Part shown: one piece after another, positions 8,081 through 48,144 of the stretch
How positions within the stretch are numbered: the first letter of the stretch is position 1
Layout: each line of letters starts with the position of its first letter
Source of the DNA: Candidatus Poribacteria bacterium
Lineage (GTDB): Bacteria > Poribacteria > WGA-4E > WGA-3G
Assembly: GCA_965214095.1 (NCBI GenBank)
Contig: OZ243938.1
Location: 206,482 to 270,481, forward strand
Length of the DNA stretch: 64,000 nt
Reading direction: 5' to 3'
Notes under the pieces: generated by a model
The model's input: only the letters and a program-made list of their open reading frames with translations
Told to the model about the DNA's origin: nothing
Database searches by the model: none
Program-made: the position numbers and the translations under genes

Positions 8081-8191
8081 GTTTTTTTAACAGTATGTTT
8101 TGCTTTAAGTTATTTTTGGATAGAAAATAACAACTTTGAACGCAAAAATCCGTGTCTCCTTAATGTGGTGGTACCCTTTTTTCTAAACAAA

Positions 8192-8220
8192 ATTTTATCA
8201 TAAACCTCCTCAAAAGTCAA
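8192..8220 (-). promoter_or_regulatory. Near-consensus sigma70-like promoter for cimA: TTGACT-N17-TAAAAT on the minus strand
   Basis: Read on the reverse complement ~110 nt upstream of the cimA ATG. The cimA ATG itself has no SD; upstream is A-rich. Confidence 0.3.
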
Positions 8221-8407
8221 GAATATTGTGATTTGCAATACGAACCATCAAACGAACTAAGGAGTATTTGTTTGGAGTGATTCCAAGACCGAAAAGCCTG
8301 GTTAAGACAAATACCAAAGACTTCAACACTACGCACACAATTCTAATTGGACAAACAAACAAATATATGGTAATCTGCATATCAAGATAATTTGGAAAAA
8401 GGAAAAT

Positions 8408-9844: not shown

Positions 9845-10113
9845 TTCCGAATTGGATAGGGTATACGATAATGAAATACGACAAAACCAACCGAACTTAT
9901 GACTGTGAACCGACACTCACAGATATACAAGTGCTGCAGTATTACCATGATGGATTCCTATAACTAAGAAGCAGCAGATGAAGCTGCGAAAGCAGGTATG
10001 AGTTTATACGCACTTGTCGCAAAGAAATTGAATACAATAGTTCCAATTGTTAAAGAAGATACAAAATAATGATATGTAATATCTAAACTCATGATTCTAT
10101 ATCGGAGTACAAA

Positions 10114-14539: not shown

Positions 14540-17500
14540 TTATAGATTCCCAAATTTCAAATCAGAAAAGGGTTTGCCATCTGAGTCAGTAATTCGCATA
14601 AAAAATGCCCATCCACCTTCTTCATTACACACCTTCGTGAGGATACTGTTTTTACCTTGTTTGAGTGTCACAGGGATAGTGTATGTATCAACAATTGCCA
14701 TAAAGGCTTTCGTATGTGAAAATGCTTCTTTCCCATTTAACCACACTTTTCCTTGGTCGTCACTATCAAATCGGATTTCAACTTTCCTTTCATCAGGAGA
14801 ATAAACGGTTGTGAATGCATAAGAGACATGCCACTCAACATTATCCTCACCGAGATGAATATAACCATCAAATTCTTCATCAATGAACTGTTTCCAACTC
14901 ACCTTTCCATTTCGTCCATCATATTTTGCTGTCAGATCAATCTCCGTGATGTTTTCAGGAATGTATGCTGTATCGTAGCCGATTCCGTCTGTATTATCAA
15001 ATGGACCGAGAACCTTCCATACATCTTCTGTGAGAAGTCCAGTCTTCTGTATATGCTTTTCTGCTTTATCAGACAGACCAAATTGACGATAGTACTCTGC
15101 TAAAGCAAAGTTTGCATTTAATTCGCTTTGCAGACTGTCAGAGTAATTGTTTTCAAGAATGGATTCAAATTTCTGTATATAATTTTCTGCTTTTTCAAGT
15201 TGACCATATTCTCGATTGTATTCTGCCAATCTAATGTAAATATGTTTAGAGAAATCTGAATTATCTGAGAGACTGTCTTCAATTCTGGATTCAGTCTTCC
15301 GAATATGCTCTTTTGCCTTCTCAAACATACCATTTGCTGCATAGAATTTTGCCAAAATCATGTATGAATTTAACTGGATGTTGATCCTATCAGGTGCTAT
15401 ATCAATCAATTGATTCAACATATTGATGTAACCATCTTTGTCCTTAACGTTTTTGCAAGATCTGGTAATCTGTGCAAACAACTTGCGTACTAAGATTGGT
15501 GAAGATATGAGCTTTAAGTCTCCTTCACGTGATGGAAAAGTTTCTGGTGTTGTAATATATAGGTTTCTGTTGTACCTTTGCAATGCCTCTTCGTACCATT
15601 CGTTTGCGAGATATACCTCTGCTAACGTCAAAGGATGATTAGAACTTTTCGCTATCGGTGATGATTTCTCAACAAATTGCAACACATTTTCTTTGGATTG
15701 TTCTTCCGTAGAAAGCTTCCTCTCAGACTCAGGTTCTTGCTTCTCTTTGCGTGCATTTGCGATAACTTTGTCCCAATTCCAAAATAGAATTGTACCCCCT
15801 CCAAAACTAATAAGCGTTTTGCCATCAGGTGAAAGTGCCAACGTTTCAATCCTGTATGTATGCTTATCAAGTGTTGCGAGTATGTCTCCTGTAGAAATAT
15901 CCAGTAATTGAATTACACCATCAAAATGACCACAAATAAGCACGGAATCATCTGGTGAAAACAATAATCCTTCGTAACTTATATTATCATCGGACACATC
16001 CCAATAGTATGTTTCTTTCGTTATTCCTATTAAACGGATCCGTTTCGTACTTCCCACAGCAAGTAGAGAACCGTCTGCCGAGAAAGCGAAATTTAAAATA
16101 CGTTCTCGGTAGCTATTACCATCCGTATGCTGCACTTCAAAGTAAGAACATAGCTCATCTCCAGTTTCCACATCCCACATCTGAACCTGTCCGCCCTCGT
16201 TTCCACTAACAATCTTTTTGCTATCTGGTGAGAATGCCAGAGTATAAATAAAAGATTTGTCATCATCGGAATCTTCATCATGATCTGAGGTAATTATTTT
16301 CTGCTTTTCACCGGTTTCCATATTCAATATGTAGATTCTATTTCCTCGACTACCGGCAATAGTTTTCCCATCTGGTGAAAAAACATCTTCATTATCATGT
16401 GGAAAAGAATCCAACTCTCGTCCAGTGTTGACATCAGTGATCCGAAGTACATAATTGTCAGAGTCAGAATTCCTCGAATGTACCTCTAAACCCATAGTCC
16501 TGAGTTTTGTTCCATCAGCTGAAAATACAAGGGTCGCAGCTGTCCCCCAATGTCTTGGCATCTCAACCGTCTTTTTCGTTTTATTAGTAGTTTTTTGAAA
16601 AGTTTCCAGATCCCAAACAGTGACTATTCCATCCGATGAAACACTTGAAAGTTTGGAATTACTTTTCATGAAAGACGCGGATCTTATCCACTCGTGCCCA
16701 GTAATTCTGGTTTTTCGAGGTGCTTTCGTCCTAATATTCCAAAATCGGACAGTACCATCTGTACTTCCACTTGCGAGCGTGTTCCCATCTGGTGAAAAAG
16801 CTAATCTGTTTACATTACTGGTGTGCCCCGTAAAAGTGGCGATAAATTCACTTGTAGCAAGGTTCCACAGTTGAATAGAACTATCAATATTTCCAATAGC
16901 AAGAATATTCCCATCTGGTGAGAATTTTAATGCTGTTGGTCTACTGATATTTTCCTTATACCATGGTTCATGTGTGATTAATTTGTCATCCGGAGTATGA
17001 AACAAAATTCTCATTTTGTCCACTTTCCTATTTAGGATAATGAGTTCTTCCCCACTTGTAGTATCCCACATTTGCACCGTTCCATCCAGATTTCCACTTG
17101 CAAGTATTGACCCATCTGGTGAGAATTCTAACGCAACAGAATGGTTCTTTTCCGACGTCCCCAAACGAAAATTAACTGTCTTCTCTGTTTGTTCTCTGAT
17201 CGTGATTAATTTCTTACCAGTTCTTATGTCCAATAACTCAAGCCTGCCATCTCTGCTGCCTATTGCCATTTTATCTTCTGTTAGCGCATAGTGTTCAAGA
17301 TGAGCATAACCTGGTCTTTCTCCAATTTCTGTGGTAGTTGTCTGTCTGGTCTCAATATTTAGAATGGTTATTGTGTCTCTGTCTTTTCCCATGCTTACAA
17401 ACGTATTATGGTCTTTCAAAAACCATGCTACACCAACATCGGGAAGGGACTCGTGTTGTGAAACTCTACGTCCTGTACCTATTTCCCATACACCTTCATC

Positions 17501-17893
17501 TTTTATAAGAAAACGACTATCTTTAGAAAAAACAAATGTTCCATGTATTTCTGGGAATAAGGAAATTTCATCGCATGTATCTACATCGTATATCCACACA
17601 CCGGTTGTACTGCTTACCGCGAGTTGATTGCCATCAGGAGAGAACTGAATTCCTCTAAGTCCACCTTTTCCCAAGCGCATTTTCGCCTCATTCGGCAGTT
17701 CCCATTGTGGGTAATTTTCAATTGATCCTTCTTCAGGATTTCCTTCAACGGTAGGTGGTGCACAATTGGGTTGTTGTTCAGTCATTGGTTTCTTGTTCCA
17801 TGTGTTTTCACTTCCAAATTCTTTCAGTACATCCGACTTCAACTCAAAAGATGTCATGATAGGTCCTCCAAAATATCTATTTGCATCTATCAA
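14540..17893 (-). CDS. 1117-aa WD40 (beta-propeller) plus TPR protein with a C-terminal jelly-roll (PA14 / sugar-binding-like) domain
   Basis: Many FSPDG..LASGS...VWD repeats, then TPR-like helical repeats, then a C-terminal ...VWLNGKE...KVCNEEGGWAFFMRITD... domain. Confidence 0.7.
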   Translation of the reverse strand: MIDANRYFGGPIMTSFELKSDVLKEFGSENTWNKKPMTEQQPNCAPPTVEGNPEEGSIENYPQWELPNEAKMRLGKGGLRGIQFSPDGNQLAVSSTTGVWIYDVDTCDEISLFPEIHGTFVFSKDSRFLIKDEGVWEIGTGRRVSQHESLPDVGVAWFLKDHNTFVSMGKDRDTITILNIETRQTTTTEIGERPGYAHLEHYALTEDKMAIGSRDGRLELLDIRTGKKLITIREQTEKTVNFRLGTSEKNHSVALEFSPDGSILASGNLDGTVQMWDTTSGEELIILNRKVDKMRILFHTPDDKLITHEPWYKENISRPTALKFSPDGNILAIGNIDSSIQLWNLATSEFIATFTGHTSNVNRLAFSPDGNTLASGSTDGTVRFWNIRTKAPRKTRITGHEWIRSASFMKSNSKLSSVSSDGIVTVWDLETFQKTTNKTKKTVEMPRHWGTAATLVFSADGTKLRTMGLEVHSRNSDSDNYVLRITDVNTGRELDSFPHDNEDVFSPDGKTIAGSRGNRIYILNMETGEKQKIITSDHDEDSDDDKSFIYTLAFSPDSKKIVSGNEGGQVQMWDVETGDELCSYFEVQHTDGNSYRERILNFAFSADGSLLAVGSTKRIRLIGITKETYYWDVSDDNISYEGLLFSPDDSVLICGHFDGVIQLLDISTGDILATLDKHTYRIETLALSPDGKTLISFGGGTILFWNWDKVIANARKEKQEPESERKLSTEEQSKENVLQFVEKSSPIAKSSNHPLTLAEVYLANEWYEEALQRYNRNLYITTPETFPSREGDLKLISSPILVRKLFAQITRSCKNVKDKDGYINMLNQLIDIAPDRINIQLNSYMILAKFYAANGMFEKAKEHIRKTESRIEDSLSDNSDFSKHIYIRLAEYNREYGQLEKAENYIQKFESILENNYSDSLQSELNANFALAEYYRQFGLSDKAEKHIQKTGLLTEDVWKVLGPFDNTDGIGYDTAYIPENITEIDLTAKYDGRNGKVSWKQFIDEEFDGYIHLGEDNVEWHVSYAFTTVYSPDERKVEIRFDSDDQGKVWLNGKEAFSHTKAFMAIVDTYTIPVTLKQGKNSILTKVCNEEGGWAFFMRITDSDGKPFSDLKFGNL

Positions 17894-25648: not shown

Positions 25649-26605
25649 ATGTTAAGTATAAAATTGAAAAGTTGCTTTTTCCTGTTAATAATAGCGATAT
25701 CCACAACATCTGCCAATGCAGCATTTAATGACATTGGTGTGGGGGCGCGTCCCCTCGGTCTTGGTGGTGCATTTGTTGCCCTCGCGGATGATAGCAATGC
25801 TGCAAACTATAATGCAGCAGGATTGGCTTATATTGACGAGAGTCAGATTGGGGTAACATACTCTCAGCGATTTAGCGGATTGATTAACTACATTGGGATT
25901 AGTGGAATTGTTCCCATCGGAGCCATCGGTACACTTGGTGCAAATATAGGTATCCTATCTGAAAGCTCAGACATATATAAAGAACAATCCATACGGATAA
26001 CGTATGCACGCAAACTATTTCAGCAATTGGGATTGGGGTTAAACATTAAGCACTACAGTACCAATTATGATTCAGAAAACGAGTTCGTTGCTTCAAACCC
26101 ATATTTCACTGAGACATCAAGCTCGGCAGTGTCACTCGATGTAGGTCTATTAGCAAAACCGGTGAAGAGCCTAAATCTCGGTTTATCATTAGAGAATTTG
26201 GTGCCTGCGGATGTCAGTATTTCTGAAGAAGAAACGGATACGGTCCCAATGAGTATCAGAACAGGTATTGCTTACAAACTGGAATCTATCGCTGAGATGA
26301 GTGTGCAGGGTGCTGCTATTACAAATATATTACGAGAAACCCTAGCAACAGTGGATATACTTTCTCGCAATGGTGAACTCTACACACGAATTGGTGTAGA
26401 AATGTGGGTGAATCCATCCATTGGTGTGCGAGGTGGGTACAGTATAAAAATTAGTGGGAATTCAGCAAACACACTCAACCTTGGTGGCAGTGCCAAGATA
26501 CCGATAGGTGGTACAGCACTGCAGCTTGATTACGGTTTTCAGCTGCTGACAGGAGACCTACAGGACAACACAACACAACGATTCTCAGTTAATCTTTTGT
26601 TCTAA
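25649..26605 (+). CDS. PorV/PorQ (FadL-like) family outer-membrane beta-barrel protein
   Basis: Signal peptide. GARPLGLGGAFVALADDSNAANYNAAGLA motif. C-terminal aromatic residue. Confidence 0.5.
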   Translation: MLSIKLKSCFFLLIIAISTTSANAAFNDIGVGARPLGLGGAFVALADDSNAANYNAAGLAYIDESQIGVTYSQRFSGLINYIGISGIVPIGAIGTLGANIGILSESSDIYKEQSIRITYARKLFQQLGLGLNIKHYSTNYDSENEFVASNPYFTETSSSAVSLDVGLLAKPVKSLNLGLSLENLVPADVSISEEETDTVPMSIRTGIAYKLESIAEMSVQGAAITNILRETLATVDILSRNGELYTRIGVEMWVNPSIGVRGGYSIKISGNSANTLNLGGSAKIPIGGTALQLDYGFQLLTGDLQDNTTQRFSVNLLF

Positions 26606-26622
26606 AGAAAGGAATATATACC

Positions 26623-28026
26623 ATGAAAAATACCCTCCTAAATACTCTCTTCATCATCTGGATAATAGTAGTACCACAGAGCTATAGTGCAGTAACTTCT
26701 ATCGGTGAGATTAACGTCGTTGGAGAAACCAAAGGAATTGTCCCGGCAAGTTCTACTGTGCCATTGCTTGTTACACTTTCAATTGATAGGTCTTTGGCAG
26801 AACCCGGTGAAGAAATCAAGACTATTGAAATTACGATGCCAAAAGGTTTTCAAACCAGCGTAACAGATTTTAAAGGCATCACGCGCGATGGAGAAAAACT
26901 ACTGGCTTCTGTCAACATTTCTGGTGGAAATGTCATACGTGTGGAACTTGCACAGGACATTAGAGATTTCCAAAATTCAATATATGACATTTTATTTGAT
27001 GCACGTACACCTAACACCATTTTTTTAGCAGAATTCAAAGTCATATTACGTAATAATGAAGATACACCAATTGGTGAATTTATACGTGCAGGACAAGCAG
27101 ATTCAAAACTGAATAATGACGATTTTACACTGCAGATCATTCCAAATGTTCCGCCTGCACCTGTTACTTCTTTCACTGCTGCAGCCGATACAACCGGTGA
27201 AAATGATGTAACACTCCGTTGGCAAAAATCAGAAGACCCTGATGTCAATGGATACATTATTTATAGAGACGTTGAAACCGTAATTAATGTAGAGAACCGT
27301 GCTGCTACAACATATCGGGATGTCAATGTTCCTCCAGGAGAACATACATATCAGATTGCTGCATACAAGTCTATATATTTACAATCTGAGCGTTCTACTG
27401 AACAGAAAGTGGTTGTGTCAGAAGATTCTGCTGCGCCGCTTCCCCCGACCGCAATCAAAATTGAAGCAAAAATGGAAGGTGTAGAATTAACTTGGAATGC
27501 TAGTGTCAGTCGTGATGTTACTAAGTATAAGATATGGTTCGGTTCGTCTGAAGCAACGACGCTTGAACCGCTTATGGAAGGTGAGATTACTGTTAATGAC
27601 ACCTCAAATGGATCATCGGAATATATGTACTTTGATCAAAGAACAATACCGAAAGGTAGTTTTACATTTACATATTCAGTGACGGCTATAGATGAGGCAG
27701 GAAATGAATCTGCACCTACGAAGAAAAGACTTAGAGTATTTGATAGACCATTCCCAAATCCATTTACTCCCCTTTCTGGTGATTCTGACTTTAACACCGT
27801 AGTTTTTCCAAAACGGACAATTGAAGACAGTGAAGGAGAATTCAATGTACTTCTCTTTAACCTAAATGGTGTTCTTGTAAAATCTCTAACAGCACAACTT
27901 GATGAAGACGAACTTCGTTGGGATGGTAAGAATGAAAGCGGTGAGGTAGTTGAGAGTGGTATTTATATCTATCAATTGCAAGTTGGGGATAGTTTTGCAA
28001 CAGGGACAATAATTGTAGCAAAATAA
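26623..28026 (+). CDS. Secreted Fn3-repeat protein with a T9SS-type (Por secretion tail / FlgD-Ig-like) C-terminal domain
   Basis: Signal peptide. Two Fn3-like modules (TLRWQKSEDPDVNGYIIYR, ELTWNASVSRDVTKYKIWFG). C-terminus NPFTP...LFNLNGVLV...SGIYIYQL...IIVAK. Confidence 0.55.
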   Translation: MKNTLLNTLFIIWIIVVPQSYSAVTSIGEINVVGETKGIVPASSTVPLLVTLSIDRSLAEPGEEIKTIEITMPKGFQTSVTDFKGITRDGEKLLASVNISGGNVIRVELAQDIRDFQNSIYDILFDARTPNTIFLAEFKVILRNNEDTPIGEFIRAGQADSKLNNDDFTLQIIPNVPPAPVTSFTAAADTTGENDVTLRWQKSEDPDVNGYIIYRDVETVINVENRAATTYRDVNVPPGEHTYQIAAYKSIYLQSERSTEQKVVVSEDSAAPLPPTAIKIEAKMEGVELTWNASVSRDVTKYKIWFGSSEATTLEPLMEGEITVNDTSNGSSEYMYFDQRTIPKGSFTFTYSVTAIDEAGNESAPTKKRLRVFDRPFPNPFTPLSGDSDFNTVVFPKRTIEDSEGEFNVLLFNLNGVLVKSLTAQLDEDELRWDGKNESGEVVESGIYIYQLQVGDSFATGTIIVAK

Positions 28027-28307: not shown

Positions 28308-29336
28308 ATGAAAAGATTAAAGACAGTTTTATTTCCATCACACATAATTGCATTAACTATTATTTTTAGTTTATTGATTTCCTTACCAGCTATGGCAGGG
28401 TGGCTTGTCTTGCAAGAAAATGATCCCGCTATCAGAGATTATATGTCAATCTTTTTTACTGGTGAAAAAACAGGGTGGGTTGTAGGTTCAGCTGCATTTG
28501 AAGATTATGAAAATCCAGGATTCATTGGATTTACGTTGAATGGCGGAAAAACTTGGAATAGATCCGAACTCAGGCTGGAATCTGATTTAACTGATTTATA
28601 CTTTTTTGATGAAAAACACGGTTGGGCAGTAGGACAAAATGGCTTAATCGCCAATACAACTAACGGCAAAGATTGGGAACTTCAAGTCAGTAAGGTTCCT
28701 GGTTTAGCACTTACAAACGTCAATTTTGTCAATGAAAAAGTTGGATACGCAGTTGGCGAGAACGAAACTATTCTTTCAACGAAGAATGGCGGACGACAAT
28801 GGAAAATCATAAAAGGTGGACAGCTCGGTTCTGGTATTGGTGATGATGAGACAACTATGTTTAACTCAGTTCAGTTTCTTGATGAAAAGACTGGATTTGT
28901 TGCTGGCATACGCGTTTTCCCCAACGAGAAAACACAGAAAAGCGTTATCATGAAAACCGAAGATGGTGCACAAACGTGGATTTCTCAAGAGACTGGTCAA
29001 GAAGATATTCTTGAAGACATATACATGCTAAATAAGGATACAGGTTGGGCAGTCGGTGAAAACGGTATTATTCTCCATACAAAAGACGGTGGAGCAACGT
29101 GGAAGAAACAGGTAAGTGGAACTGAAGAGACACTCCGTAGTGTCCATTTTGCAAGTGAAAAAGTTGGACTTACCGTTGGCGGCGAACTCGGTGTCGGTGT
29201 CTATATCACTACTACCGACGGTGGTCAGACATGGACTATTGAAAGTACAAAACAGAAAATGATGAAGGCACATTTTCTTAACATCAATCATGTTTGGTTA
29301 GCAGGTTCAACAGGGTTGATCATGAAGAAAGAATAA
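28308..29336 (+). CDS. BNR-repeat / Ycf48-like beta-propeller protein (secreted)
   Basis: Signal peptide. Repeated T.[DN]GG.TW BNR motifs (TNGGKTW, TKNGGRQW, TEDGAQTW, TKDGGATW, TTDGGQTW). Confidence 0.55.
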   Translation: MKRLKTVLFPSHIIALTIIFSLLISLPAMAGWLVLQENDPAIRDYMSIFFTGEKTGWVVGSAAFEDYENPGFIGFTLNGGKTWNRSELRLESDLTDLYFFDEKHGWAVGQNGLIANTTNGKDWELQVSKVPGLALTNVNFVNEKVGYAVGENETILSTKNGGRQWKIIKGGQLGSGIGDDETTMFNSVQFLDEKTGFVAGIRVFPNEKTQKSVIMKTEDGAQTWISQETGQEDILEDIYMLNKDTGWAVGENGIILHTKDGGATWKKQVSGTEETLRSVHFASEKVGLTVGGELGVGVYITTTDGGQTWTIESTKQKMMKAHFLNINHVWLAGSTGLIMKKE

Positions 29337-29549: not shown

Positions 29550-30722
29550 TTGGACAGCCCTATATTCGCCAAGCGTATGAGCCGCTTGGGAACAGAATCG
29601 GCATTTGAGGTGTTAGCCAAAGCCAAGAGTTTAGAAGCACAAGGTAAAGACATTATACATTTAGAAATTGGTCAACCTGACTTTACGACCCCAATGAATG
29701 TATGTGAAGCAGCATTCAAGGCAATGAAAGATGGGCACACAGGTTATTGTCCATCCGCTGGAATACCTGAATTCCGTGAAGTTGTCGCACAACATATCGG
29801 TGAAACTCGTAATATTGATATTCACCCAGACGAAGTTACAGTAACACCTGGCGCAAAACCGATCATCTTTTTTACTATCTTAGCATTAGTGGATGATGGT
29901 GATGAAGTAATCTATCCGGAACCAGGTTTTCCTGTTTATGAATCAGTGATTGATTTTATCGGTGGTAAAGCAATTCCTCTTCCACTCCGTGAAGAAGTTG
30001 ATTTTCGATTCCGAATTGAAGATCTTATAGACAGAATCACAGACCGAACAAAACTATTGATCCTCAATTCTCCCCAAAATCCTACCGGTGGCATCCTAAC
30101 AGAATCTGACCTAACTGATATAGCAGAACTTGCACAGAAACATAACTTTTATATTCTTACCGATGAAGTTTACTCGCGTTTACTCTATGAAGGAACGCAT
30201 CAAAGCATCATAAGCCTACCAGGTTTGAAAGAGAAGACAATATTAATTGATGGACATTCAAAGACTTATGCTATGACTGGTTGGCGATTAGGATACGGTG
30301 TTGCCCCTCGCGAGATTGCAGATAAGATAACACGATTGACCATCAACTCAAATTCATGCACAGCCACTTTCACACAATATGCAGGTATAGAAGCATTGGT
30401 AGGACCTCAGACGTTCGTAACACAGATGGTAGCAGAGTTTAGAAAACGCCGTGATGTCATTGTAGATGGATTAAATGCTATTGACGGTATTTCCTGTGTC
30501 AAACCACTCGGTTCATTTTATGTTTTTCCGAATGTATCAAAACTACCACTTTCATGTGAAGAACTTGCTGATTATATAATGAATGAGGTAGGCGTTGCGT
30601 TATTACCCGGCACAGCATTTGGGAAGTACGGTGATGGGTATCTTAGACTTTCTTATGCAAATTCTTTAGAAAATATAGAAGATGCCCTCAACAGAATACA
30701 AACTGCTGTTTCCAAGTTGTAG
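29550..30722 (+). CDS. Class I/II PLP-dependent aminotransferase (aspartate aminotransferase-like)
   Basis: TTG start with AAAGGAGGT SD. PLP-lysine motif HSKTYAMTGWRLGY. Confidence 0.75.
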   Translation: MDSPIFAKRMSRLGTESAFEVLAKAKSLEAQGKDIIHLEIGQPDFTTPMNVCEAAFKAMKDGHTGYCPSAGIPEFREVVAQHIGETRNIDIHPDEVTVTPGAKPIIFFTILALVDDGDEVIYPEPGFPVYESVIDFIGGKAIPLPLREEVDFRFRIEDLIDRITDRTKLLILNSPQNPTGGILTESDLTDIAELAQKHNFYILTDEVYSRLLYEGTHQSIISLPGLKEKTILIDGHSKTYAMTGWRLGYGVAPREIADKITRLTINSNSCTATFTQYAGIEALVGPQTFVTQMVAEFRKRRDVIVDGLNAIDGISCVKPLGSFYVFPNVSKLPLSCEELADYIMNEVGVALLPGTAFGKYGDGYLRLSYANSLENIEDALNRIQTAVSKL

Positions 30723-30742: not shown

Positions 30743-31651
30743 ATGTCTCAGAAAGCGACAGCGCGAATTCCCGCAAGCACAACAAATCTTGGACCCGGGT
30801 TTGATGTACTGGGATTAGCACTGCAACTTTATAGCACCGTTTCATTGGAAATCACAAAAAATGAAACAGATGTTATTGTCAGTGGTGTAGATGTTGATAA
30901 GATACCAAGCACAACGGAACACATTGCTTTTCGTGCGGTAGAATACGTTTTTCAAAGTTGCGGACAACAACTACCTAATGGCTTAATATTGAACATTGCT
31001 AACGGTATTCCTGCTATACGGGGTTTAGGCGGCAGTGGTACTGCTATCCTTGGCGGGTTGTTAACAGCAAATGTTTTATGTGGTAATCCGTTTTCTCGTT
31101 CAGAACTACTCAATTTTGCCTCAGCAATTGAAGGGCATCCAGACAATGTTGCTGCTTCTTTGCTTGGAGGTCTGGTTATATCGGTACAAGAAAATGACCA
31201 TATCCATACAATAAAGATACCATGCGATCCTACTTTACACATTGTACTCGCTATCCCTGAATTCACATTGTCTACTCAGAAAGCGCGTGACATTTTACCC
31301 AAAAAAGTAGAATTTGCAGATGCTATATATAACATAAGTCGAAGTTCACTACTTGTGGCAAGTATAGCATCTGGAAAATTAGACATTCTTTCAACTGCGA
31401 TGTCTGATAAACTTCATCAACCATATCGCAGCAGAATTATCCCTGGATTTAATGATGTCGTTGATGCAGCAACTTCTGCAGGAGCTCTGAGCACTGCATT
31501 AAGTGGCGCGGGACCAACAATTGCGGCCTACTGCATTGATAACATGCAGGAAGTTGGTATTAGCATGCAGGAAGCATTTAGTGATAACGACATCCGTTGT
31601 GAAATAAAGATATTGAGTGCAGATCTGGATGGGGCAAAAGTGTGGACATAA
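30743..31651 (+). CDS. thrB: Homoserine kinase-like GHMP kinase
   Basis: PASTTNLGPGFD GHMP motif. ~300 aa. Confidence 0.6.
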   Translation: MSQKATARIPASTTNLGPGFDVLGLALQLYSTVSLEITKNETDVIVSGVDVDKIPSTTEHIAFRAVEYVFQSCGQQLPNGLILNIANGIPAIRGLGGSGTAILGGLLTANVLCGNPFSRSELLNFASAIEGHPDNVAASLLGGLVISVQENDHIHTIKIPCDPTLHIVLAIPEFTLSTQKARDILPKKVEFADAIYNISRSSLLVASIASGKLDILSTAMSDKLHQPYRSRIIPGFNDVVDAATSAGALSTALSGAGPTIAAYCIDNMQEVGISMQEAFSDNDIRCEIKILSADLDGAKVWT

Positions 31652-31775
31652 TACCAATTCTGAAAGTTAAAGTCGCATTAGGAGTTTATTAGTCGTTGTA
31701 AATGTACGAGACGCAATGGATTGCGCTTGGTGAATGTGCTTATGACATTACATTGAACCAGTTATTTCTCTAAGG
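31649..31775 (+). repeat. Family-3 post-stop repeat, long form (taataccaattctgaaagttaaagtcgcattagga ... gagacgcaatggattgcgc ... gaaccagtt)
   Basis: The 5' module matches 51759-51808. The palindrome core and 3' module match 12117-12200. Confidence 0.55.
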
Positions 31776-31841
31776 GTATGTTCTCAATTACAAACACTAT
31801 AAGATGACAGTATCATAATTTGAAATCATAAGAAACAAGCA

Positions 31842-34583
31842 TTGTTAGGAAAAAATATGTCTAATTTCTATGCAGAAACAATTTCTTTTCTGCAGAACCA
31901 GTTCAATACAGATTTAGAATCTGGCTTGAGTCACGCTGAAGTTGAAAAGTTAAGAGTAGAACACGGTGAAAATGTCTCAATGTCCAAATTCAAATCTTGG
32001 AATATGTCATCTTATCTTGAGCAGGTATTCAACTGGAGATTATTATTACTGGTACTTACCTCAGTACTTTTCGGTATTGCTGGTGACTTATATGGTACAA
32101 TTCTCATTGGTACAATTGCAATTATTTCACTATTGTGGGCAACAGTTGTGGCAATTAGTTCTCAGATTAGACAAAAACACCTTCAAAAGCAATTCAACTA
32201 CAAAGTATCTGTAATCCGGCAAGGCAAGCAAGAACAGTGTCATCCATCAGACATTGTTCCGGGGGACCTTCTTGTACTTAGGCAGGGGAACTATATTCCC
32301 GCTGATGCCCGAATAATACAAGCGGATGGACTATTTGTTGATGAGTCAAGTTTGTTTGGAAGTAGTGGTGCTGCGAAAAAAGATGTTAAAGAAATAACTG
32401 AAACTGGTATCCCACCTGAACAACAGACAAACATGGTTTTTGGTGGTACTTTTGTTGACGCAGGAGTTGGGAATGCAATTGTCGTCAGAACGGCTGATGA
32501 GATGGAAATGTATAAGATAAATACAGAAAACCGTCAGATGCCTAAAGAAATGACTGGTGATGAAAACCAATTAAAGTTTTGTAAAGACATATTGATATTT
32601 GCTGGTCTGGTCGTCGGGACAATTGCTGTCGCAATCTCATGGTGGCAACAATCCTCGCTAAATCCCACTACCAATTGGATACAATATGTTCAAATCGTGT
32701 TGATATTTGCTTTAGCTGCGACACCCTATAACTTATCTTTACTATTGAATACCATTATAGATCGTAGATCTTTTGGCTTGACCAAAAGAGGATTGGTGTT
32801 ACGAAATAGCAAAGATTTTGAGAAGTTAAACCGGCTCACTGCTTTCTGTTCTGATGAACAAGGCATTGTAAGTACACAATCTCTGACAATTTCCAATATC
32901 TTTGTGGATGAACAAATTGTTAATCGGTCAACATGGGAAAAATGGTTGACATCACTTGAATCACATCCATCGGATGAAATAAGTGAACGTGTTAGTAATA
33001 TATCACCTGGATTTCATATTCCGCAAGGTGCCCCAGGTTTGGTATTGACCGCCGGTTTGGGTACATCTGGGGAACGATACTATGATAGGAATAACACAGA
33101 ACAATCACATCAACAAGTTATACATGCTGCTGTGGAAAAACTCGGATACCAATTGAATACTATAAAATCTAATATGCAGCTTGTTACAGAATACCCTTGG
33201 ACTGCAAACTTTGGATTTGAACTTCATGTATTTAAATCTGGGGATGATGAGTATTTGAATATTATAGTTGGTGATGCAGGCGATGTCTTGGAAGCAAGTG
33301 ATTCTATCCTTGTTAATGGGGAAATAACGGAGTTTTCTTACGAACAATTTGAAAATTGTAATGAAATCCTAAAATACATGAAAAACTCCAGAGAACATGT
33401 CTTCGGTATAGCCTCTGTACATTCTGAAATGCCATTGTCCCCTCCTGAAGTTCAGGGAGTATCAACTTTTTTAGGGTTCATCAGTTTTTCTGCTACAGAT
33501 AAGAAAGAGACTATTTCGGTGATTAAGTCTTTCCTTGACACCGGCATTAAGGTCATTCTGATTAGCGAAGTAGATGAACAGACAACCACAGATTTGGCAA
33601 GAGAACTTGGACTTGCACACACCCGAAACGCCGTTGCAACAAGAGAAGAACTCATAAATCTTACAACACAAGAGTTTGATCGTGAAGTGCCAAATTTGAG
33701 CGCATATTCTCAACCGACGCAAGAACAGAGACGTAACATTGTTCGCAGTTTGAAGCGGCATGATAATTCGGTAGGATATTTAGGTCAAAGTTCTATTGAT
33801 CAACGGGCAATGATTGCAGCGGATATCGCATTTGCTGATACAAGATATGCAACACATTACGCACAAGACCACGCGGATTGTCTGATAATTGACAAAGGTT
33901 TTAAGTCAGTAAAAGAATGTATGATATATGCGCGTGAAGTATATCTAAACCTTTCAGGAACATTGCGGTGGTGTCTTTCTTGCACAATCGCTCAATTCTT
34001 AGTAGTGATTTTCGGTTTGATCTTACACACTGGGTTTAATTATGAAATGCCACTCTCACTGAAACAGGTCGTTTGGGTGCAATTCTTGACAACACTGCTG
34101 CCAGCCATCGGGTTAGGCTATGAGAAACTGTTTGTAGATTCTAAACATTACAATACCAGTAGAACGACTTCTTTACTACCGAAGACTGCAGTGTTTGATA
34201 TTGTGTGCAGAAGTGTTGTTATCAGTTTGATGACAATTATACATTTCTTAGTAATTACATTTACATCGGAAGAATTTAATCTATTAGAGGCACAATCAGC
34301 AACATGCACAACGCTTTTCTTTACACAAGTGGTTTCCTACTTCCAATGTATGCGCTATCCGTGGGAGTCACTCTTCAAAAGGATGTTTGTCAACATTCGG
34401 CTATTATTTGTTTTTATACTGGTAATTGGACTTTATATGGCTGGTATGTATATTGAATTCATACATTCTATAATTGGTATCGTTCCACTTCAAAAGGATT
34501 GGATAATCACTGGTTTGTGTAGTATTATTTTGCTGTTATTACCACTAAATTTGGCTATTAATCCTCGTAAAGATATGATTTAA
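31842..34583 (+). CDS. P-type (E1-E2) ATPase homolog with degenerate catalytic motifs; likely a pseudo-ATPase
   Basis: N-terminal cation-ATPase domain and the M4 region align to SERCA-type pumps, but PEGL is PYNL, DKTGT is DEQGI, DPPR is TDKK, TGD is SEVD, and GDGVND is GQSSID. Confidence 0.65.
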   Translation: MLGKNMSNFYAETISFLQNQFNTDLESGLSHAEVEKLRVEHGENVSMSKFKSWNMSSYLEQVFNWRLLLLVLTSVLFGIAGDLYGTILIGTIAIISLLWATVVAISSQIRQKHLQKQFNYKVSVIRQGKQEQCHPSDIVPGDLLVLRQGNYIPADARIIQADGLFVDESSLFGSSGAAKKDVKEITETGIPPEQQTNMVFGGTFVDAGVGNAIVVRTADEMEMYKINTENRQMPKEMTGDENQLKFCKDILIFAGLVVGTIAVAISWWQQSSLNPTTNWIQYVQIVLIFALAATPYNLSLLLNTIIDRRSFGLTKRGLVLRNSKDFEKLNRLTAFCSDEQGIVSTQSLTISNIFVDEQIVNRSTWEKWLTSLESHPSDEISERVSNISPGFHIPQGAPGLVLTAGLGTSGERYYDRNNTEQSHQQVIHAAVEKLGYQLNTIKSNMQLVTEYPWTANFGFELHVFKSGDDEYLNIIVGDAGDVLEASDSILVNGEITEFSYEQFENCNEILKYMKNSREHVFGIASVHSEMPLSPPEVQGVSTFLGFISFSATDKKETISVIKSFLDTGIKVILISEVDEQTTTDLARELGLAHTRNAVATREELINLTTQEFDREVPNLSAYSQPTQEQRRNIVRSLKRHDNSVGYLGQSSIDQRAMIAADIAFADTRYATHYAQDHADCLIIDKGFKSVKECMIYAREVYLNLSGTLRWCLSCTIAQFLVVIFGLILHTGFNYEMPLSLKQVVWVQFLTTLLPAIGLGYEKLFVDSKHYNTSRTTSLLPKTAVFDIVCRSVVISLMTIIHFLVITFTSEEFNLLEAQSATCTTLFFTQVVSYFQCMRYPWESLFKRMFVNIRLLFVFILVIGLYMAGMYIEFIHSIIGIVPLQKDWIITGLCSIILLLLPLNLAINPRKDMI

Positions 34584-36529
34584 ACCCAGAACCCGTAGGT
34601 CGGTATTCCACCGATAATTCCGATAATTGTCCAGATACTTCCAATTGTGAACTCACCAAGGATTAAACCTAAAAAGAATGGGGCTACCTTCCGATACCTT
34701 ACGGGTCCACCATATTTTAGAATGATTAATTTGATAAGCCAACTCATGAATAAACAACCCCAAGTAACGTTCATACCCCAACTTGTTGAAATGGCAAATC
34801 CTGCTGGATGAAAGGGCCACCAAACAAACCGCATTCTAAATAGCATCAAAAAGGTTGTCATCAAATACCCGAACACTGTAAAAGCAGTTTCAGGAACAAG
34901 TGTCCCAGTTGGTGATTGTAACCAACCTGTGAGTCTTCTGTAAGGTTCAATACCGAAAGCACTCAAGGATGGTGAAGGGGCACGAACTTCCATACCTAAC
35001 TGATAACCTCGGTCAATTAATGCCCAGAATCCTGCTAAAGAACCTAATGCAGCTGCAAACATCAATGCAAAAACAATGCGTCGCATTGACATATTCGTCC
35101 GTTCTATTATCTTGAAACCTTCCAATTGATGGGGCATCGGGTGGCTGCGGTAGGCACGGTTGATAAACCAAAACAGTGAGAACATCACAAGGTTTTCTCT
35201 GCCTAACTTACGGGTACCCACAACTCTTGTTAGGATCTGATCAGGGCCCGCATAATGAAGATCGTGAACAGGTGTTCCTAACTCAGCACGCATGCGTGTG
35301 ATAGCAATAGAAATCATATAATAAATTACAAAGAAAACAAACATAATACCGATGTTTGCACCACCGTAGTAACAAAATACGACCAAGAATAATATTGCCA
35401 TGATCAATCCGAATACTGCACCTCTATACGAAAGTGGGCCCTCTTTTGCTTGTGAGTTGTCTCTACTAAAAATCATCCGCCCAACCCAAAGCAGATGTCG
35501 TCTACTTGCCCAAATAGCAAGAACGCACAATGCAAGATACCCACCAGACGCTTGCTCGTTAAGATATGGGAATCTTGGTAGACTTCTAAATCCGAACATC
35601 GCTCCAACGACACGCAATATCCGCCAATACCAGAAGAAAAACCAACAGGAAAATGAAAGGTCAAGAGGAATAAAAAAACCGAGTCCAATTGCAAATGGAT
35701 ATAGTGAAAAAGGGATATTACCCATCGCATTCCAAGGACTGTCAGTGAAAATTCGGTAACTCCGATTCCGGGTAGGTAACTCCGGAAAAAAAGGATACAA
35801 GAAACTTAACCCATTCCACAAGGCTAAACCACCTGCAATACAGAATCCCACCCACATAACCTTATTCTTAAAGAAGTTGTTATGGGCAGCACCAGTCAAT
35901 TGAAGCGGAAGATGGATTATCGGGTAGCTTAGTTTTTCATACTCTATCCACTGTTTTCTAATGATGATGTTGATGCAGAGCATACCAAATACTAATACAC
36001 CGATGAAGACTGTCCACCACAGAACGGGTGTTGCCCAACCGAGTAGCGTTTGATATGTATAGAGCGGTAAGTCACCTTCATAGTAACCCCGTAGTAATTC
36101 ACTGTTACGGACAGTAAGCCATTCCGGTAGATAAGGAAGGAACAGCTGCTGCCATTCATTCTCTGGAGTTGCGAAGCGAAACGCATGTCCCAACATCGGC
36201 ACTAATATCTCAAGCATATCGTGACCAGTAATTCCGGATGCAATAGAAAGCATCAAATAGACAACTACCAATTCACTCTGTGCTAATGCTAAAGGAGGGA
36301 GGACTCGTTTCAACAGTTGGTTGAGACCTATTATAACAAACAGAGAAAATATTACATTGAAAAAGAGGGAAATCGTGACAGGATGTCCTGAATAACGGAT
36401 TACCTCCATCTCAATCACCCAATAACAGTTGATCGGTATGAGGATGGCAGCGATAAGGATAGATTTGATAGTAACCCCGTGGGGAGGAATCTGTGAAGGA
36501 TTAAATGCCGGGGTCTGTTGTATTTCCAT
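34580..36529 (-). CDS. Polytopic integral membrane protein (649 aa), unknown family
   Basis: Many hydrophobic helices. Stop shares the TTAA tetranucleotide with the convergent ATPase-homolog stop. Confidence 0.6.
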   Translation of the reverse strand: MEIQQTPAFNPSQIPPHGVTIKSILIAAILIPINCYWVIEMEVIRYSGHPVTISLFFNVIFSLFVIIGLNQLLKRVLPPLALAQSELVVVYLMLSIASGITGHDMLEILVPMLGHAFRFATPENEWQQLFLPYLPEWLTVRNSELLRGYYEGDLPLYTYQTLLGWATPVLWWTVFIGVLVFGMLCINIIIRKQWIEYEKLSYPIIHLPLQLTGAAHNNFFKNKVMWVGFCIAGGLALWNGLSFLYPFFPELPTRNRSYRIFTDSPWNAMGNIPFSLYPFAIGLGFFIPLDLSFSCWFFFWYWRILRVVGAMFGFRSLPRFPYLNEQASGGYLALCVLAIWASRRHLLWVGRMIFSRDNSQAKEGPLSYRGAVFGLIMAILFLVVFCYYGGANIGIMFVFFVIYYMISIAITRMRAELGTPVHDLHYAGPDQILTRVVGTRKLGRENLVMFSLFWFINRAYRSHPMPHQLEGFKIIERTNMSMRRIVFALMFAAALGSLAGFWALIDRGYQLGMEVRAPSPSLSAFGIEPYRRLTGWLQSPTGTLVPETAFTVFGYLMTTFLMLFRMRFVWWPFHPAGFAISTSWGMNVTWGCLFMSWLIKLIILKYGGPVRYRKVAPFFLGLILGEFTIGSIWTIIGIIGGIPTYGFWV

Positions 36530-41488: not shown

Positions 41489-42526
41489 TTATAGACGTTC
41501 CCTCAACATATCCATGAGACCGTCAGGTGGATCAAATGGTAGTTCTACTACTTCGTTTGTAATTCCACTATAATATATGCCGAGTAGTAGATTGAATTCA
41601 GCCAACGATTGTTTTAGGTGTGTTGGATGTTCATTCTTTTCATCGTCTAGCCAATCAAAGACTGCATTCGTGAGATTACCTTGTGCCATAACATCTTGCT
41701 CTCCATAGCTGAGTGGTCCACCTTCATAACCTCCATCTCTTGTGGATCGTTCCCAACTACTAAATCGCCAATGAACATAGCCATCTTCACCGATTACAAA
41801 GACTCGTTTGTGGAAGAAAACCGTCTGATCATCGGATGCAGAAGGTGCGATTGCTGTGCCAAACGCAACTGAGACATGTATTCCGTTTTCATATTGAACA
41901 CGAGCGGCAGCGAATTGCGGTGATGGTTGCGCAGAATCTAAATGTGCTCCACCTGATATTTGTCCCAATACGCGTACCGGACGAGAGTTATCAATGTAAG
42001 ATGACACTAACTGAAGGACATGTGGACCTTGATCAACAGGTGTGCTCCGTGCACTTGCATCTATAAACTTGATTTCACCGATTTTTCCATCTGCGACATC
42101 TTTCTTTAGTTCCAAGTTTTGTGGGTGAAAGTTCAATTGGGTATTCACAACAAATTTGGTTGTTGTCTCTTCTGCCAAACCGGCGATCTGTTTCCAGTCT
42201 TCACTTTCAACAGCAATAGGTTTCTCAACGATTGCAGCTGGAACGCCATGGTCGGATGCTTGTTTCATGAGCGGATAACGGATACGTTCATTAGATCCGC
42301 GAAGAACTGGCGCGGTGACAATGTGGAGAACATCAGGTTTTTCTTTTTCAAGCATCTCATCTAAATCCGTGTAGCGAGATGAGATATTGAAATCGTCTCC
42401 AAATCGGTTGAGTAGTTCTTTGTTCATATCACAGACGGCAGCAAGTTTGCCACCTTTTACAAAACGGTATGCATCTGCATGTGCACGTGCACGACCTCCA
42501 CAACCTAATATCGCTGTCTTATACAT
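41489..42526 (-). CDS. Gfo/Idh/MocA-family oxidoreductase, tandem paralog 1 (variable loop TAIAPSASDDQTVFF)
   Basis: MYKTAILGCGGRARAHA Rossmann fold, EKP motif, VDQGPH. TAAGGAGAT SD. Confidence 0.75.
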   Translation of the reverse strand: MYKTAILGCGGRARAHADAYRFVKGGKLAAVCDMNKELLNRFGDDFNISSRYTDLDEMLEKEKPDVLHIVTAPVLRGSNERIRYPLMKQASDHGVPAAIVEKPIAVESEDWKQIAGLAEETTTKFVVNTQLNFHPQNLELKKDVADGKIGEIKFIDASARSTPVDQGPHVLQLVSSYIDNSRPVRVLGQISGGAHLDSAQPSPQFAAARVQYENGIHVSVAFGTAIAPSASDDQTVFFHKRVFVIGEDGYVHWRFSSWERSTRDGGYEGGPLSYGEQDVMAQGNLTNAVFDWLDDEKNEHPTHLKQSLAEFNLLLGIYYSGITNEVVELPFDPPDGLMDMLRERL

Positions 42527-45953: not shown

Positions 45954-46991
45954 TTACAATTTTTCTCTAAGTAAATCAATCAGTCCATCTGGTGGATTGA
46001 AAGGTAAATCTATAATCTGATTGGTGATGCCGCTATAGTACATTCCCAATAATAAATTAAACTCAGCAAGTGATTGTTTTAGGTGTGTTGGATGAACTTT
46101 GTTTTCATCGTCCAACCAATCAAATACTGCATCCGTAAGATTTCCTTGTGCCTGGACATCCTGCTCGGGGTAACTAAGATGACCTGATTCATAACCAGTG
46201 ATTTGTGTTGAGCGTTCCCAACTGCTGAACCGCCAATGCACAAAACCTTTTGTACCTACAACAAACACACGTTTATGTCTGAAATTCGCAGGTCTATCGG
46301 AAACTTTTGCACCCATTTCTGTGCCAAAAGCAACGGAGACGTGAAGACCATTTTCATACAGAACATGTGCTGCTGCGTGCAAAGGTGATGGTTCATCTGA
46401 ATCTAAACGATCTCCTCCTGAGATCTGTCCAAGTACACTCACAGGTCGAGCGTTATCAATATATGATGATACCAATTGAATTACATGAGGTCCTTGGTTT
46501 ACAGCGGTATTGCGAGCACTTGCATCAATGAATCTAATCTCACCAATTTTGCCATCTGCAACATCTTGCTTTAGTTCAATGTTTTTCGGATGGAAGTTCA
46601 GTTGTGTGTTGACAACAAATTTTGTATGAGTGACTTCTGCTAATCCGGCAATCTGATTCCAGTCACCGCTATCAACAGCAATCGGTTTTTCAACAATTGC
46701 AGCAGGGACTCCGTGGTCAGATACCTGTTTCATCAGAGGATAACGGATATATTGATTAGTGCCGCGTAATAGTGGAGCAGTGACAATATGAAGAAGATCA
46801 GGTTTTTCTCTTTCAAGCATCTCATCTAAATCGGTATAGCGTGCAGAGATATCAAAGCGATCACCAAAATCGTTCAGACGTTCTTCGTTCATATCGCAGA
46901 TGGCTGCGAGTTTACCATGTTTAACAAAACGATAAGCACCAGCATGTCCACGTGCCCGACCACCACACCCCAATATGGCACTCTTATACAT
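45954..46991 (-). CDS. Gfo/Idh/MocA paralog 4 (variable loop TEMGAKVSDRPANFR). DxxxH is NxxxH here.
   Basis: Collinear with the other paralogs. Reads VNQGPH where they read VDQ[GA]PH. Confidence 0.75.
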   Translation of the reverse strand: MYKSAILGCGGRARGHAGAYRFVKHGKLAAICDMNEERLNDFGDRFDISARYTDLDEMLEREKPDLLHIVTAPLLRGTNQYIRYPLMKQVSDHGVPAAIVEKPIAVDSGDWNQIAGLAEVTHTKFVVNTQLNFHPKNIELKQDVADGKIGEIRFIDASARNTAVNQGPHVIQLVSSYIDNARPVSVLGQISGGDRLDSDEPSPLHAAAHVLYENGLHVSVAFGTEMGAKVSDRPANFRHKRVFVVGTKGFVHWRFSSWERSTQITGYESGHLSYPEQDVQAQGNLTDAVFDWLDDENKVHPTHLKQSLAEFNLLLGMYYSGITNQIIDLPFNPPDGLIDLLREKL

Positions 46992-47106: not shown

Positions 47107-48144
47107 CTACAATTGCTCCCTGAGAGAATCAAATATATTATCAGGCGGATCAAAAGGTAAATCTATCATATTCTTCGTAATACCACTTTGATAAATACCT
47201 AAGAGTAGATTGAATTCTGCAAGTGATTGTTTGAGATGTGTTGGATGTACATTCTTCTCATCATCAAGCCAATCAAAGACGGCTTCAGTAAGGTTGCCTT
47301 GTGCCTCAACATCTTGTTCACCATAGTTGAGAGGACCACCCTCATATCCACCATCGTGTGTTGAACGTTCCCAACTACTAAAACGCCAATGCACAAACCC
47401 TTCTGTGCCGACTACAAAAACACGTTTATGACAATAAATTCCCTGATTATCAGATGCCATAGTACCCATTCCTTGTCCAAATGCGACAGAAACGTGTAAT
47501 CCATTTTCATATAAAACCTGTGCGGCAGCGTGCATTGGAGAAGGTTGAGCAGAATCTAAATGATCTCTCCCTGCGATTTGACCTAAGACACGCGTCGGAC
47601 GAGAATTATCAATATATGATGATACTAACTGTAACACATGTGGACCTTGATCTACAGGAGTGCTTCGTGCACTTGCATCTATAAACTTAATGTCTCCAAT
47701 CTTACCATCTGCAACATCGCGTTTTAGTTCAAGGTTCTTGGGATGAAAGTTGAGTTGTGTGTTGACGACAAACTTTGTATTCGTTTCTTCTGCCAATCCA
47801 GCGATCTGCTTCCAATCATCGCTTTCAACAGCAATCGGTTTCTCTACAATTGCTGCCGGCACTCCGTGGTCAGAAGCTTGCTTCATCAGAGAGTATCGTA
47901 TTCTTTCATTTGAACCGCGTAAAACGGGTGCGGTGACAATGTGTAGTAGATCCGGTTTCTCTTTATTGAGCATTTCATCCAAATCCGTGTATCTTGAAGA
48001 GATTTCAAATCTATCACCGTAGGCATTGAGTCGTTCCTCGTTCATATCACAGACGGCTGCAAGTTTTCCATTCTTAACAAAGCGATAGGCACTTGCGTGA
48101 CCACCTGCACGTCCGCCGCACCCTAACATCGCACTTTTATACAT
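47107..48144 (-). CDS. Gfo/Idh/MocA paralog 5 (variable loop QGMGTMASDNQGIYC)
   Basis: AAGGAGA SD. Collinear with the other paralogs. Confidence 0.75.
   Translation of the reverse strand: MYKSAMLGCGGRAGGHASAYRFVKNGKLAAVCDMNEERLNAYGDRFEISSRYTDLDEMLNKEKPDLLHIVTAPVLRGSNERIRYSLMKQASDHGVPAAIVEKPIAVESDDWKQIAGLAEETNTKFVVNTQLNFHPKNLELKRDVADGKIGDIKFIDASARSTPVDQGPHVLQLVSSYIDNSRPTRVLGQIAGRDHLDSAQPSPMHAAAQVLYENGLHVSVAFGQGMGTMASDNQGIYCHKRVFVVGTEGFVHWRFSSWERSTHDGGYEGGPLNYGEQDVEAQGNLTEAVFDWLDDEKNVHPTHLKQSLAEFNLLLGIYQSGITKNMIDLPFDPPDNIFDSLREQL

Follow-up and report, generated by a model that had tools for sequence, protein, structure and literature searches.

What becomes of an ion pump once the chemistry that defines it has been lost? 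P-type ATPases are defined by aspartyl-phosphate chemistry, and reviews and classification schemes, to our knowledge, treat their DKTGT motif as universal. The question is raised by a gene in a 64,000-nucleotide stretch of DNA from a Candidatus Poribacteria bacterium (assembly GCA_965214095.1, contig OZ243938.1, positions 206,482 to 270,481; hereafter the window). The gene encodes a P-type ATPase homologue, here called the pseudo-pump, which an initial annotation made from the letters alone had described as degenerate in its signatures. Matches to Pfam, NCBIfam and PDB entries, together with residue alignments, bore this description out. We conclude that the pseudo-pump is very probably catalytically dead but selected.

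The pseudo-pump and its replaced motifs

Translation of the gene is likelier to start at ATG 31857 than at TTG 31842, the first codon of the mechanical open reading frame (ORF), because all 70+ homologues begin at the ATG (MSNFYAE...) and an AGGA lies 9-12 nt 5' of it. The protein matched the Pfam models E1-E2_ATPase (2.4e-26), Cation_ATPase_C (1.3e-15) and Cation_ATPase_N (4.3e-7), and neither Hydrolase PF00702 nor the N-domain model PF13246 gave a match, even at E<=1. A sub-threshold match to DUF7747 in the C-terminal part of the N-domain (33342..33506, amino acids 501-555 of the 913-residue ORF; E 2.7e-4, 21.3 bits versus a cut-off of 25) is probably noise. The closest solved relatives were human SPCA1 (4e-48), Listeria LMCA1, MgtA, SERCA and Na,K-ATPase; with an ORF of 900 amino acids and matches at E<1e-40, chance resemblance is not an issue. 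As a fold, the protein belongs to the P-type ATPase superfamily, with A, P and N domains in canonical order in a 6+4-helix membrane domain. It carries no extra domain and ends after M10, at 908 amino acids.

A model predicted by AlphaFold2 from a 67-sequence alignment (mean predicted local distance difference test score, pLDDT, 78.7; predicted TM-score, pTM, 0.66) comprises ten membrane helices, and its A, P and N domains can be recognised. Foldseek aligned about 1000 columns to Na,K-ATPase, SERCA, SPCA1 and LMCA1 (E 2.5e-40, TM-score up to 0.72). The top TM-scores (0.70-0.72) were obtained with open E1-type states of Na,K-ATPase and SERCA, and we read no conformational state from them.

Motifs were called from HMMER and MAFFT alignments of the window residues with canonical pumps. 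Columns were compared between 67 clade members and 150 canonical P2 pumps, and then across 77 species-level genomic copies, to which the species counts below refer. Residues carry SERCA1a numbers, which we take from the established literature and assigned via the motif alignment; the amino acid positions of the motifs in Table 1 are those of the 913-residue ORF.

The residues of the phosphorylation cycle are replaced throughout the clade. In the A-domain, Thr181 is Phe in 76 of the 77 species, and the position of Glu183 is never occupied by Glu. In the P-domain loop, Lys352 has become Glu in all 77, and Thr353 and Thr355 are both lost. The nucleophile itself, Asp351, is Asn in 40 species, Asp in 35, and Ser and His in one each; the window copy has Asp. 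Switches between Asp and Asn recur inside the closest subclade (A). Because Asn is found in more than half of the species and the switches are recurrent, the nucleophile carboxylate is, judging from the alignments, not under selection.

The nucleotide and metal sites fare no better. Lys492 is replaced by Gly or Pro (Gly in the window copy), Lys515 by Phe or Val (Phe in most species, Val in the window copy) and Arg560 by Gln, Thr or His. At Lys492, Lys515, Asp703 and Asp800 the canonical residue was never present in the 77 species. In the hinge and Mg2+ site, Asp601, Arg604, Gly626 (now Glu or Asp), Thr701 and Asp703 are lost, the Asp627 equivalent is Asp in six species only, and the Asn706 equivalent varies across the clade. 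Of the HAD core there remain Ser or Thr at motif II in 70/77 species and, in 77/77, both Arg or Lys at motif III and the last Asp of motif IV.

At the membrane cation site, the Ca2+ ligand positions Glu309, Asn768, Glu771, Asn796 and Asp800 read Tyr, Thr, Gln, Gln and Thr in the window copy, with no acidic residue. Across the clade, Asn768 is Thr in 73/77 species, Glu771 is Gln or Leu, Asn796 is Gln or His, and Asp800 is Thr, Ser or Asn. The Glu309 equivalent is mostly His, Tyr or Gln (Glu in four species only) and is followed by Asp or Asn in 69.

Measured against the P-type ATPases as an enzyme class, the protein lacks DKTGT, TGE(S), HAD motifs II-IV and the ATP-binding residues of the N-domain. 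The best NCBIfam model was that of PMR1-type Ca2+-ATPases (TIGR01522), which it matched at 216 bits versus a curated cut-off of 798; with a score below the cut-off and the Ca2+ ligands replaced, it does not fall into this P2A/PMR1 type. By its sequence it would be classed as a pseudoenzyme, a clear homologue of an enzyme family without the catalytic residues and maintained by selection. Since the residues for ATP binding, aspartyl-phosphate formation, Mg2+ coordination, Glu-driven dephosphorylation and cation coordination are gone, the pseudo-pump is not an ATP-driven pump and, within the limits of what sequence can tell, a Post-Albers cycle is excluded.

The initial annotation had likewise argued against a conventional E1-E2 phosphoenzyme cycle, and within the same limits we agree. 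Its readings of PEGL as PYNL, DKTGT as DEQGI, MITGD as LISEVD (LISEV in the aligned columns) and GDGVND as GQSSID returned in the HMMER and MAFFT alignments with the same residues. The profile check that it had proposed also came out in its favour: P-type ATPase models match, and no intact DKTGT or GDGxND is displaced to another place in the protein or present in any frame of the window. Three statements need amendment. TGES, given as absent, is lost as a motif, but its loop is present and reads FGSS. DPPR is lost as claimed, but the aligned residues are ATDK, one off the TDKK reported. The phosphorylated Asp is kept in this copy, as claimed, but not across the species. The losses of N-domain lysines, the neutralised membrane cation site and the Asn nucleophile of most species go beyond what had been noticed.

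Distribution, selection and new constraint

A first homology search returned 72 proteins with 33-100% identity (528-2046 bits), followed by a gap and then by canonical pumps at 208 bits or less. All members above the gap are degenerate and all sequences below it canonical. The clade comprises about 70 protein clusters, every one of them degenerate, whose database names are 'cation-transporting P-type ATPase' or 'cation transporting ATPase C-terminal domain-containing protein'. A profile search over 1.84 billion cluster representatives yielded four representatives of the clade (at least 1097 bits) and four remoter sequences (541-612 bits) whose degeneracy takes other forms; canonical pumps followed from about 437 bits. 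When one genome per GTDB species was scanned, the 80 best loci all belonged to Candidatus Poribacteria, a sponge-associated phylum of uncultured organisms. Each Poribacteria species found (77 species genomes) carries one copy of the pseudo-pump, at a conserved locus.

A more divergent tier of degenerate P2-type proteins (P0123-P0126) is about 24% identical to the window protein. Its replacements are TGRA, FLES, TNTI and TDKI, and EHTGG, DETSN, EQESS and EARGY. This tier includes a gene at 8001..10736 of locus L090 (GCA_024278235.1, JAJRTO010000157.1).

In all 85 complete copies the ORF (907-959 amino acids) is uninterrupted, with no internal stop. The ratio of nonsynonymous to synonymous substitution rates (dN/dS) was 0.09-0.12 overall; pairwise Nei-Gojobori values against four orthologues were 0.114-0.120 (dS 0.57-1.2). 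Among the neighbouring genes, thrB gave similar values (0.07-0.15), the Ycf48-like gene 0.15-0.22, and the aminotransferase-like gene, DUF6785 and uppS lower ones (0.02-0.08). Within the pseudo-pump, dN/dS was lowest in the C-terminal half of the P-domain (0.05-0.08) and in M5-M6 (0.03-0.09) and highest in M1-M2 (0.23-0.36). The protein diverges faster than any of its neighbours: between the window and locus L004 the pseudo-pumps are 41% identical, the Ycf48-like proteins 52%, and the aminotransferase-like, ThrB, DUF6785 and UppS proteins 65-82%.

A total of 78 positions are at least 90% conserved in the clade and rare in canonical pumps. Their density is 14% in the C-terminal half of the P-domain, 11% in M7-M10, 10% in the N-domain and 3% in the A-domain core. 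Several stand at former catalytic positions (Phe167, Glu334, Arg625, Leu642 and Gln742 at 90% or more, Gln644 and Thr746 at 80% or more; 908-residue numbering). These clade-specific positions and a new C-terminal motif (Table 1) indicate, at the level of the alignments, new constraint rather than decay. Conservation of the degeneracy in orthologues had been put forward in the initial annotation as a test of a repurposed scaffold, and the pseudo-pump passes it: the whole clade is degenerate and under purifying selection.

A pump fold, probably without catalysis

We think it somewhat probable, short of being confident, that the pseudo-pump is an ancient, phylum-restricted, neofunctionalised and non-catalytic paralogue of PMR1/SERCA-like P2-type pumps that serves as a structural or regulatory membrane module. 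Embedded in the membrane, such a module would act via its fold rather than by catalysis. Constraint is strongest, and the new invariant residues are found, on the P and N domains, on the spine from the P-domain to M5/M6 and on the C-terminal tail, which suggests a binding or regulatory surface; a partner or small ligand may be bound by the remodelled P-/N-domain surface, the spine and the new tail. At the former ion site, neutral polar residues have taken the place of the charged ligands, the pattern expected of a site that no longer holds a cation. Uncharged and repacked, it would merely stabilise an ion-free helix bundle. Gated transport is disfavoured by the relaxed M1-M2 gate, and a simple cation channel via the old site by the loss of charged ligands from the canonical site. 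Expression of the gene is probably tied to the preceding aminotransferase-like and thrB genes.

Several points weigh against this interpretation. The inactivity of the protein is deduced from its sequence, and the scaffold or regulator role is arrived at by elimination. An Asp stands one residue past the former Glu309 in 50/77 species and could still help to bind a cation or proton. With its HAD remnants (Ser/Thr of motif II, Arg/Lys of motif III, the second Asp of motif IV), the old active site may still bind some phosphate or metal. In the AlphaFold2 model, pLDDT is 37-66 across residues ~547-620 of the P-domain and also low around the DEQGI loop; because the prediction is poor at residues ~547-620, the most constrained region has an uncertain structure. 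The neighbour-joining distance tree, which places all degenerate sequences in a single group on a long stem among P2 pumps, carries no support values. Finally, thrB and the pseudo-pump could owe their linkage to inherited synteny that has no functional meaning, and one sublineage has relocated the gene behind rplU-rpmA.

It is possible, although we would sooner expect otherwise, that the protein has gained a new ATP-independent activity, essential enough to be retained in every species: a passive conduit or carrier made from a pump, or a metabolite-gated membrane regulator working through the gutted phosphorylation pocket. If true, this would be the first family of natural, stand-alone P-type pseudo-pumps whose function is defined. 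An ATP-independent channel or uniporter for protons, monovalent cations or small polar solutes, passing through the remodelled and uncharged M4-M5-M6 site, seems unlikely to us. M5-M6 is among the most constrained regions (dN/dS 0.03-0.09), and the replacements at the old ion site are polar and conserved (Thr710, Gln742, Thr746, and Asp or Asn after the M4 Pro). The model also superposes on palytoxin-opened Na,K-ATPase (PDB 9vj0, TMq 0.70), which is among the structural matches and illustrates that the P2 fold can pass ions passively, but it does so no better than on closed E1 states. Moreover, 9vj0 is a toxin-induced state of an active pump with its charged ion site intact, whereas the ion site of the pseudo-pump is uncharged. 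The charged ligands are all gone in the window copy and, across the clade, Glu771 is Gln or Leu and Asp800 is Thr, Ser or Asn, as would be expected of an ion-free buried site; M1-M2, the cytoplasmic entry gate, is the least constrained part. We give even less credence to a ligand sensor in which the former phosphorylation pocket would, like an Asp-to-Asn HAD mutant that traps its substrate, bind Mg2+, phosphate or a phosphorylated metabolite without turning it over, and relay its occupancy to the membrane domain or a partner. The pocket does keep an Asp or Asn at the nucleophile, Ser/Thr in 70/77 and Arg/Lys and the last Asp in 77/77 species, along with an invariant Glu at Lys352; dN/dS is lowest, and clade-specific conserved residues are densest, in the C-terminal half of the P-domain, and the upstream thrB and aminotransferase genes make or consume phosphorylated and amino-acid intermediates. 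However, the Mg2+ ligand Asp703 and the backbone cage of Thr353, Gly626 and Asp627 are lost, the conserved neighbourhood offers no output domain or known signalling partner, and the idea is purely inferential.

That the protein is still an ATPase or phosphatase working through unconventional residues is very improbable. An Asp nucleophile in this copy and in 35/77 species, with conserved remnants of motifs II, III and IV, would be compatible with such an enzyme. More than half of the species, however, have Asn, Ser or His in its place, with repeated Asp/Asn switches in subclade A; the protein lacks the lysines and Arg that bind ATP, the Mg2+ ligand and the Glu for dephosphorylation, and no hydrolase-domain hidden Markov model matches. 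Hardly credible is a functionless relic, that is, a slowly decaying pseudogene, or an annotation artefact. As the L004 identities show, the gene is the fastest-evolving one of its neighbourhood, but all 85 complete copies (~907-959 amino acids) are intact across phylum-level divergence, with dN/dS ~0.12 and 78 clade-specific conserved positions. The intact ORFs, the dN/dS and the clade-specific conservation effectively refute a pseudogene or artefact.

Among known systems, P2A/PMR1-type Ca2+-ATPases (SPCA1, LMCA1, SERCA) resemble the pseudo-pump in domain order and fold, give its best sequence, profile and structure matches and share many identical structural residues of the A-domain. They differ from it in that its catalytic and ion-site signatures are replaced, its profile score is below the cut-off, the hydrolase match is missing and it has an additional C-terminal motif. 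Bacterial pseudo-receiver domains and further pseudoenzymes with phospho-aspartate folds are alike in concept, having kept an aspartyl-phosphate-dependent fold without the phosphotransfer residues; receiver domains are small, soluble and devoted to signalling, whereas the pseudo-pump is a ~100-kDa transporter with ten helices, and the likeness is one of analogy rather than family-level homology. A full-text literature search whose scope lay outside TCDB and the 2010 Chan/Saier prokaryotic survey returned no account of any non-catalytic P-type ATPase that is bacterial or stands alone. In a 2023 review of the field's open questions, neither 'inactive' nor 'degenerat' occurs, and the lone match to 'pseudo' is a species name.

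The nearest published precedent that we found is the flippase-like module of the P4-ATPase-guanylate cyclase fusions (P4GC) of alveolates and stramenopiles: in Cryptosporidium, Plasmodium P4GC-beta, gregarines and Tetrahymena it lacks the DKTGT Asp and the A-domain Glu, and the degenerate module is retained, with a supporting non-ATPase role proposed for it (PMC13466520, PMC6592433). In those accounts the P4GC module is eukaryotic and P4-type, is fused to a cyclase output and shows partial, lineage-specific degeneracy. The Poribacteria protein, in contrast, is bacterial, P2-type and stand-alone, and its degeneracy extends to all members and all motifs, the substrate site included. It bears neither a P4-type signature nor a fused class III cyclase: P2-type proteins, not P4, are its best matches, and it has no extra domain.

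A clade that has lost pump chemistry, nucleotide site and ion site yet keeps the ~100-kDa architecture phylum-wide implies that a function open to selection can reside in the fold as such. It adds a membrane transporter to the catalogue of pseudoenzymes and, with all motifs naturally off, can serve as a control when pump conformations are studied structurally and mechanistically. It also means that about 70 'cation-transporting P-type ATPase' entries are misannotated, which would distort metabolic reconstructions of sponge symbionts.

Genomic neighbourhood and other features of the window

In subclades A and B the gene order is that of the window: PCMT, a PorP-like gene, a gene for a 465-amino-acid protein, the Ycf48-like gene, the aminotransferase-like gene, thrB and the pseudo-pump, converging with DUF6785/DUF6784 and uppS (Table 1). 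The order aminotransferase, thrB, pseudo-pump was found in 81 loci, with thrB directly 5' on the same strand (median gap 111 bp, minimum 5 bp). In the much deeper lineage of L090, which is among these loci, the four-gene block from the propeller gene to the pseudo-pump is kept, and the outer flanks are unrelated. There the genes of the block overlap or sit 7 bp apart, with a 7-bp gap before the pseudo-pump P0123, and identity to the window is 65% for the aminotransferase-like protein, 44% for ThrB and 24% for the pseudo-pump. The linkage to the upstream block is the only one that outlasts general synteny. In a sublineage of subclade C (L081, L083, L086, L087, L091) the pseudo-pump lies 3' of rne/rng-rplU-rpmA and before a convergent Aminotran_5 gene, and not behind thrB.

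Table 1. Coordinates of the pseudo-pump, its replaced motifs and the adjoining genes in the window
Feature	Position	Strand	Amino acids (913-residue ORF)	Basis or remark
Ycf48-like BNR beta-propeller protein, opening the conserved block	28308..29336	+		conserved across loci
Aspartate-aminotransferase-like pyridoxal-phosphate (PLP) enzyme, conserved upstream block	29550..30722	+		conserved across loci
thrB (homoserine kinase), directly upstream	30743..31651	+		TIGR00191, 296 bits versus cut-off 168
Pseudo-P-type ATPase coding sequence	31857..34583	+		908 amino acids from ATG 31857; mechanical ORF 31842..34583, 913 amino acids from TTG 31842
A-domain loop, FGSS for TGES	32355..32366	+	172-175	alignment
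M4 unwound segment, PYNL for PEGL	32724..32735	+	295-298	alignment
P-domain loop, DEQGI for DKTGT	32853..32867	+	338-342	alignment
N-domain, VGDAG for KGAPE, ATP-binding Lys lost	33267..33281	+		alignment
Hinge, ATDK for DPPR	33492..33503	+	551-554	alignment
LISEV for MITGD; motif II Thr kept as Ser/Thr, Gly and Asp gone	33558..33572	+	573-577	alignment
EQRRN; Lys684 equivalent is Arg (Arg 73, Lys 4 across species)	33723..33737	+		alignment
GQSSID for GDGVND; Asp703 to Gln, Asp707 equivalent kept in 77/77	33783..33800	+	648-653	alignment
M5 SCTIAQ; cation ligands Asn768 to Thr, Glu771 to Gln	33978..33995	+		alignment
M6 WVQFLTT; cation ligands Asn796 to Gln, Asp800 to Thr	34074..34094	+		alignment
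C-terminal tail PLNLAINPR, clade-conserved, no canonical-pump counterpart	34542..34568	+		alignment
DUF6785/DUF6784 membrane protein, 649 amino acids, OPT/Yellow-Stripe-like fold	34580..36529	-		convergent; stops overlap by 4 bp (34580..34583)

The sequence upstream of the pseudo-pump (31500-32000) contained no riboswitch or other known RNA with an Rfam match at E<=1. A scan for promoters and terminators between thrB and the pseudo-pump was uninformative, terminator-like sites being no more numerous than in shuffled sequences. The 205-bp spacer between the two genes holds a perfect palindrome, CGCAAT-GG-ATTGCG, at 31712..31725. Because its 2-nt spacer is too short for a loop, it looks more like a putative protein-binding site than a hairpin.

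At the 3' end, a DUF6785 gene abuts or overlaps the pseudo-pump in 72 loci. The stop codons overlap by 4 bp in 28 of them (L001, L003 and L004 among others) and by 19 bp in six; of the other 38, 33 lie within 80 bp, and the maximum spacing is 192 bp. This leaves no space for separate terminators, and the 3' transcript ends of the two genes should therefore, as predicted from their arrangement, be mutually antisense. The initial annotation had offered the convergent 649-residue protein as a partner of the pseudo-pump. This suggestion did not hold: the DUF6785 gene is absent next to the pseudo-pump in L017 and L028, fragmentary in L018 and L029, and absent in all of subclade C and in L090/L091, and its family, with 2504 matches, is far broader than the pseudo-pump clade. 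An obligate partnership or two-gene system is ruled out by this inconsistent co-occurrence.

Among the remaining genes of the window, three ORFs gave no Pfam match at E<=1e-5, all on the forward strand: 2154..4661 (835 amino acids), 25649..26605 (318) and 26623..28026 (467). The latter two are syntenic across Poribacteria; in related loci they correspond to a protein with a weak PorP_SprF-like match and to a ~465-residue protein with weak FlgD_ig matches. Three paralogous oxidoreductases of the GFO_IDH_MocA family, each of 345 amino acids, are encoded within 7 kb on the reverse strand (41489..42526, 45954..46991 and 47107..48144). Also on the reverse strand, 14540..17893 encodes a protein of 1117 amino acids rich in WD40 beta-propeller repeats, whose best Pfam matches are eukaryotic propeller families; eukaryote-like repeat proteins of this kind have been reported for sponge symbionts.

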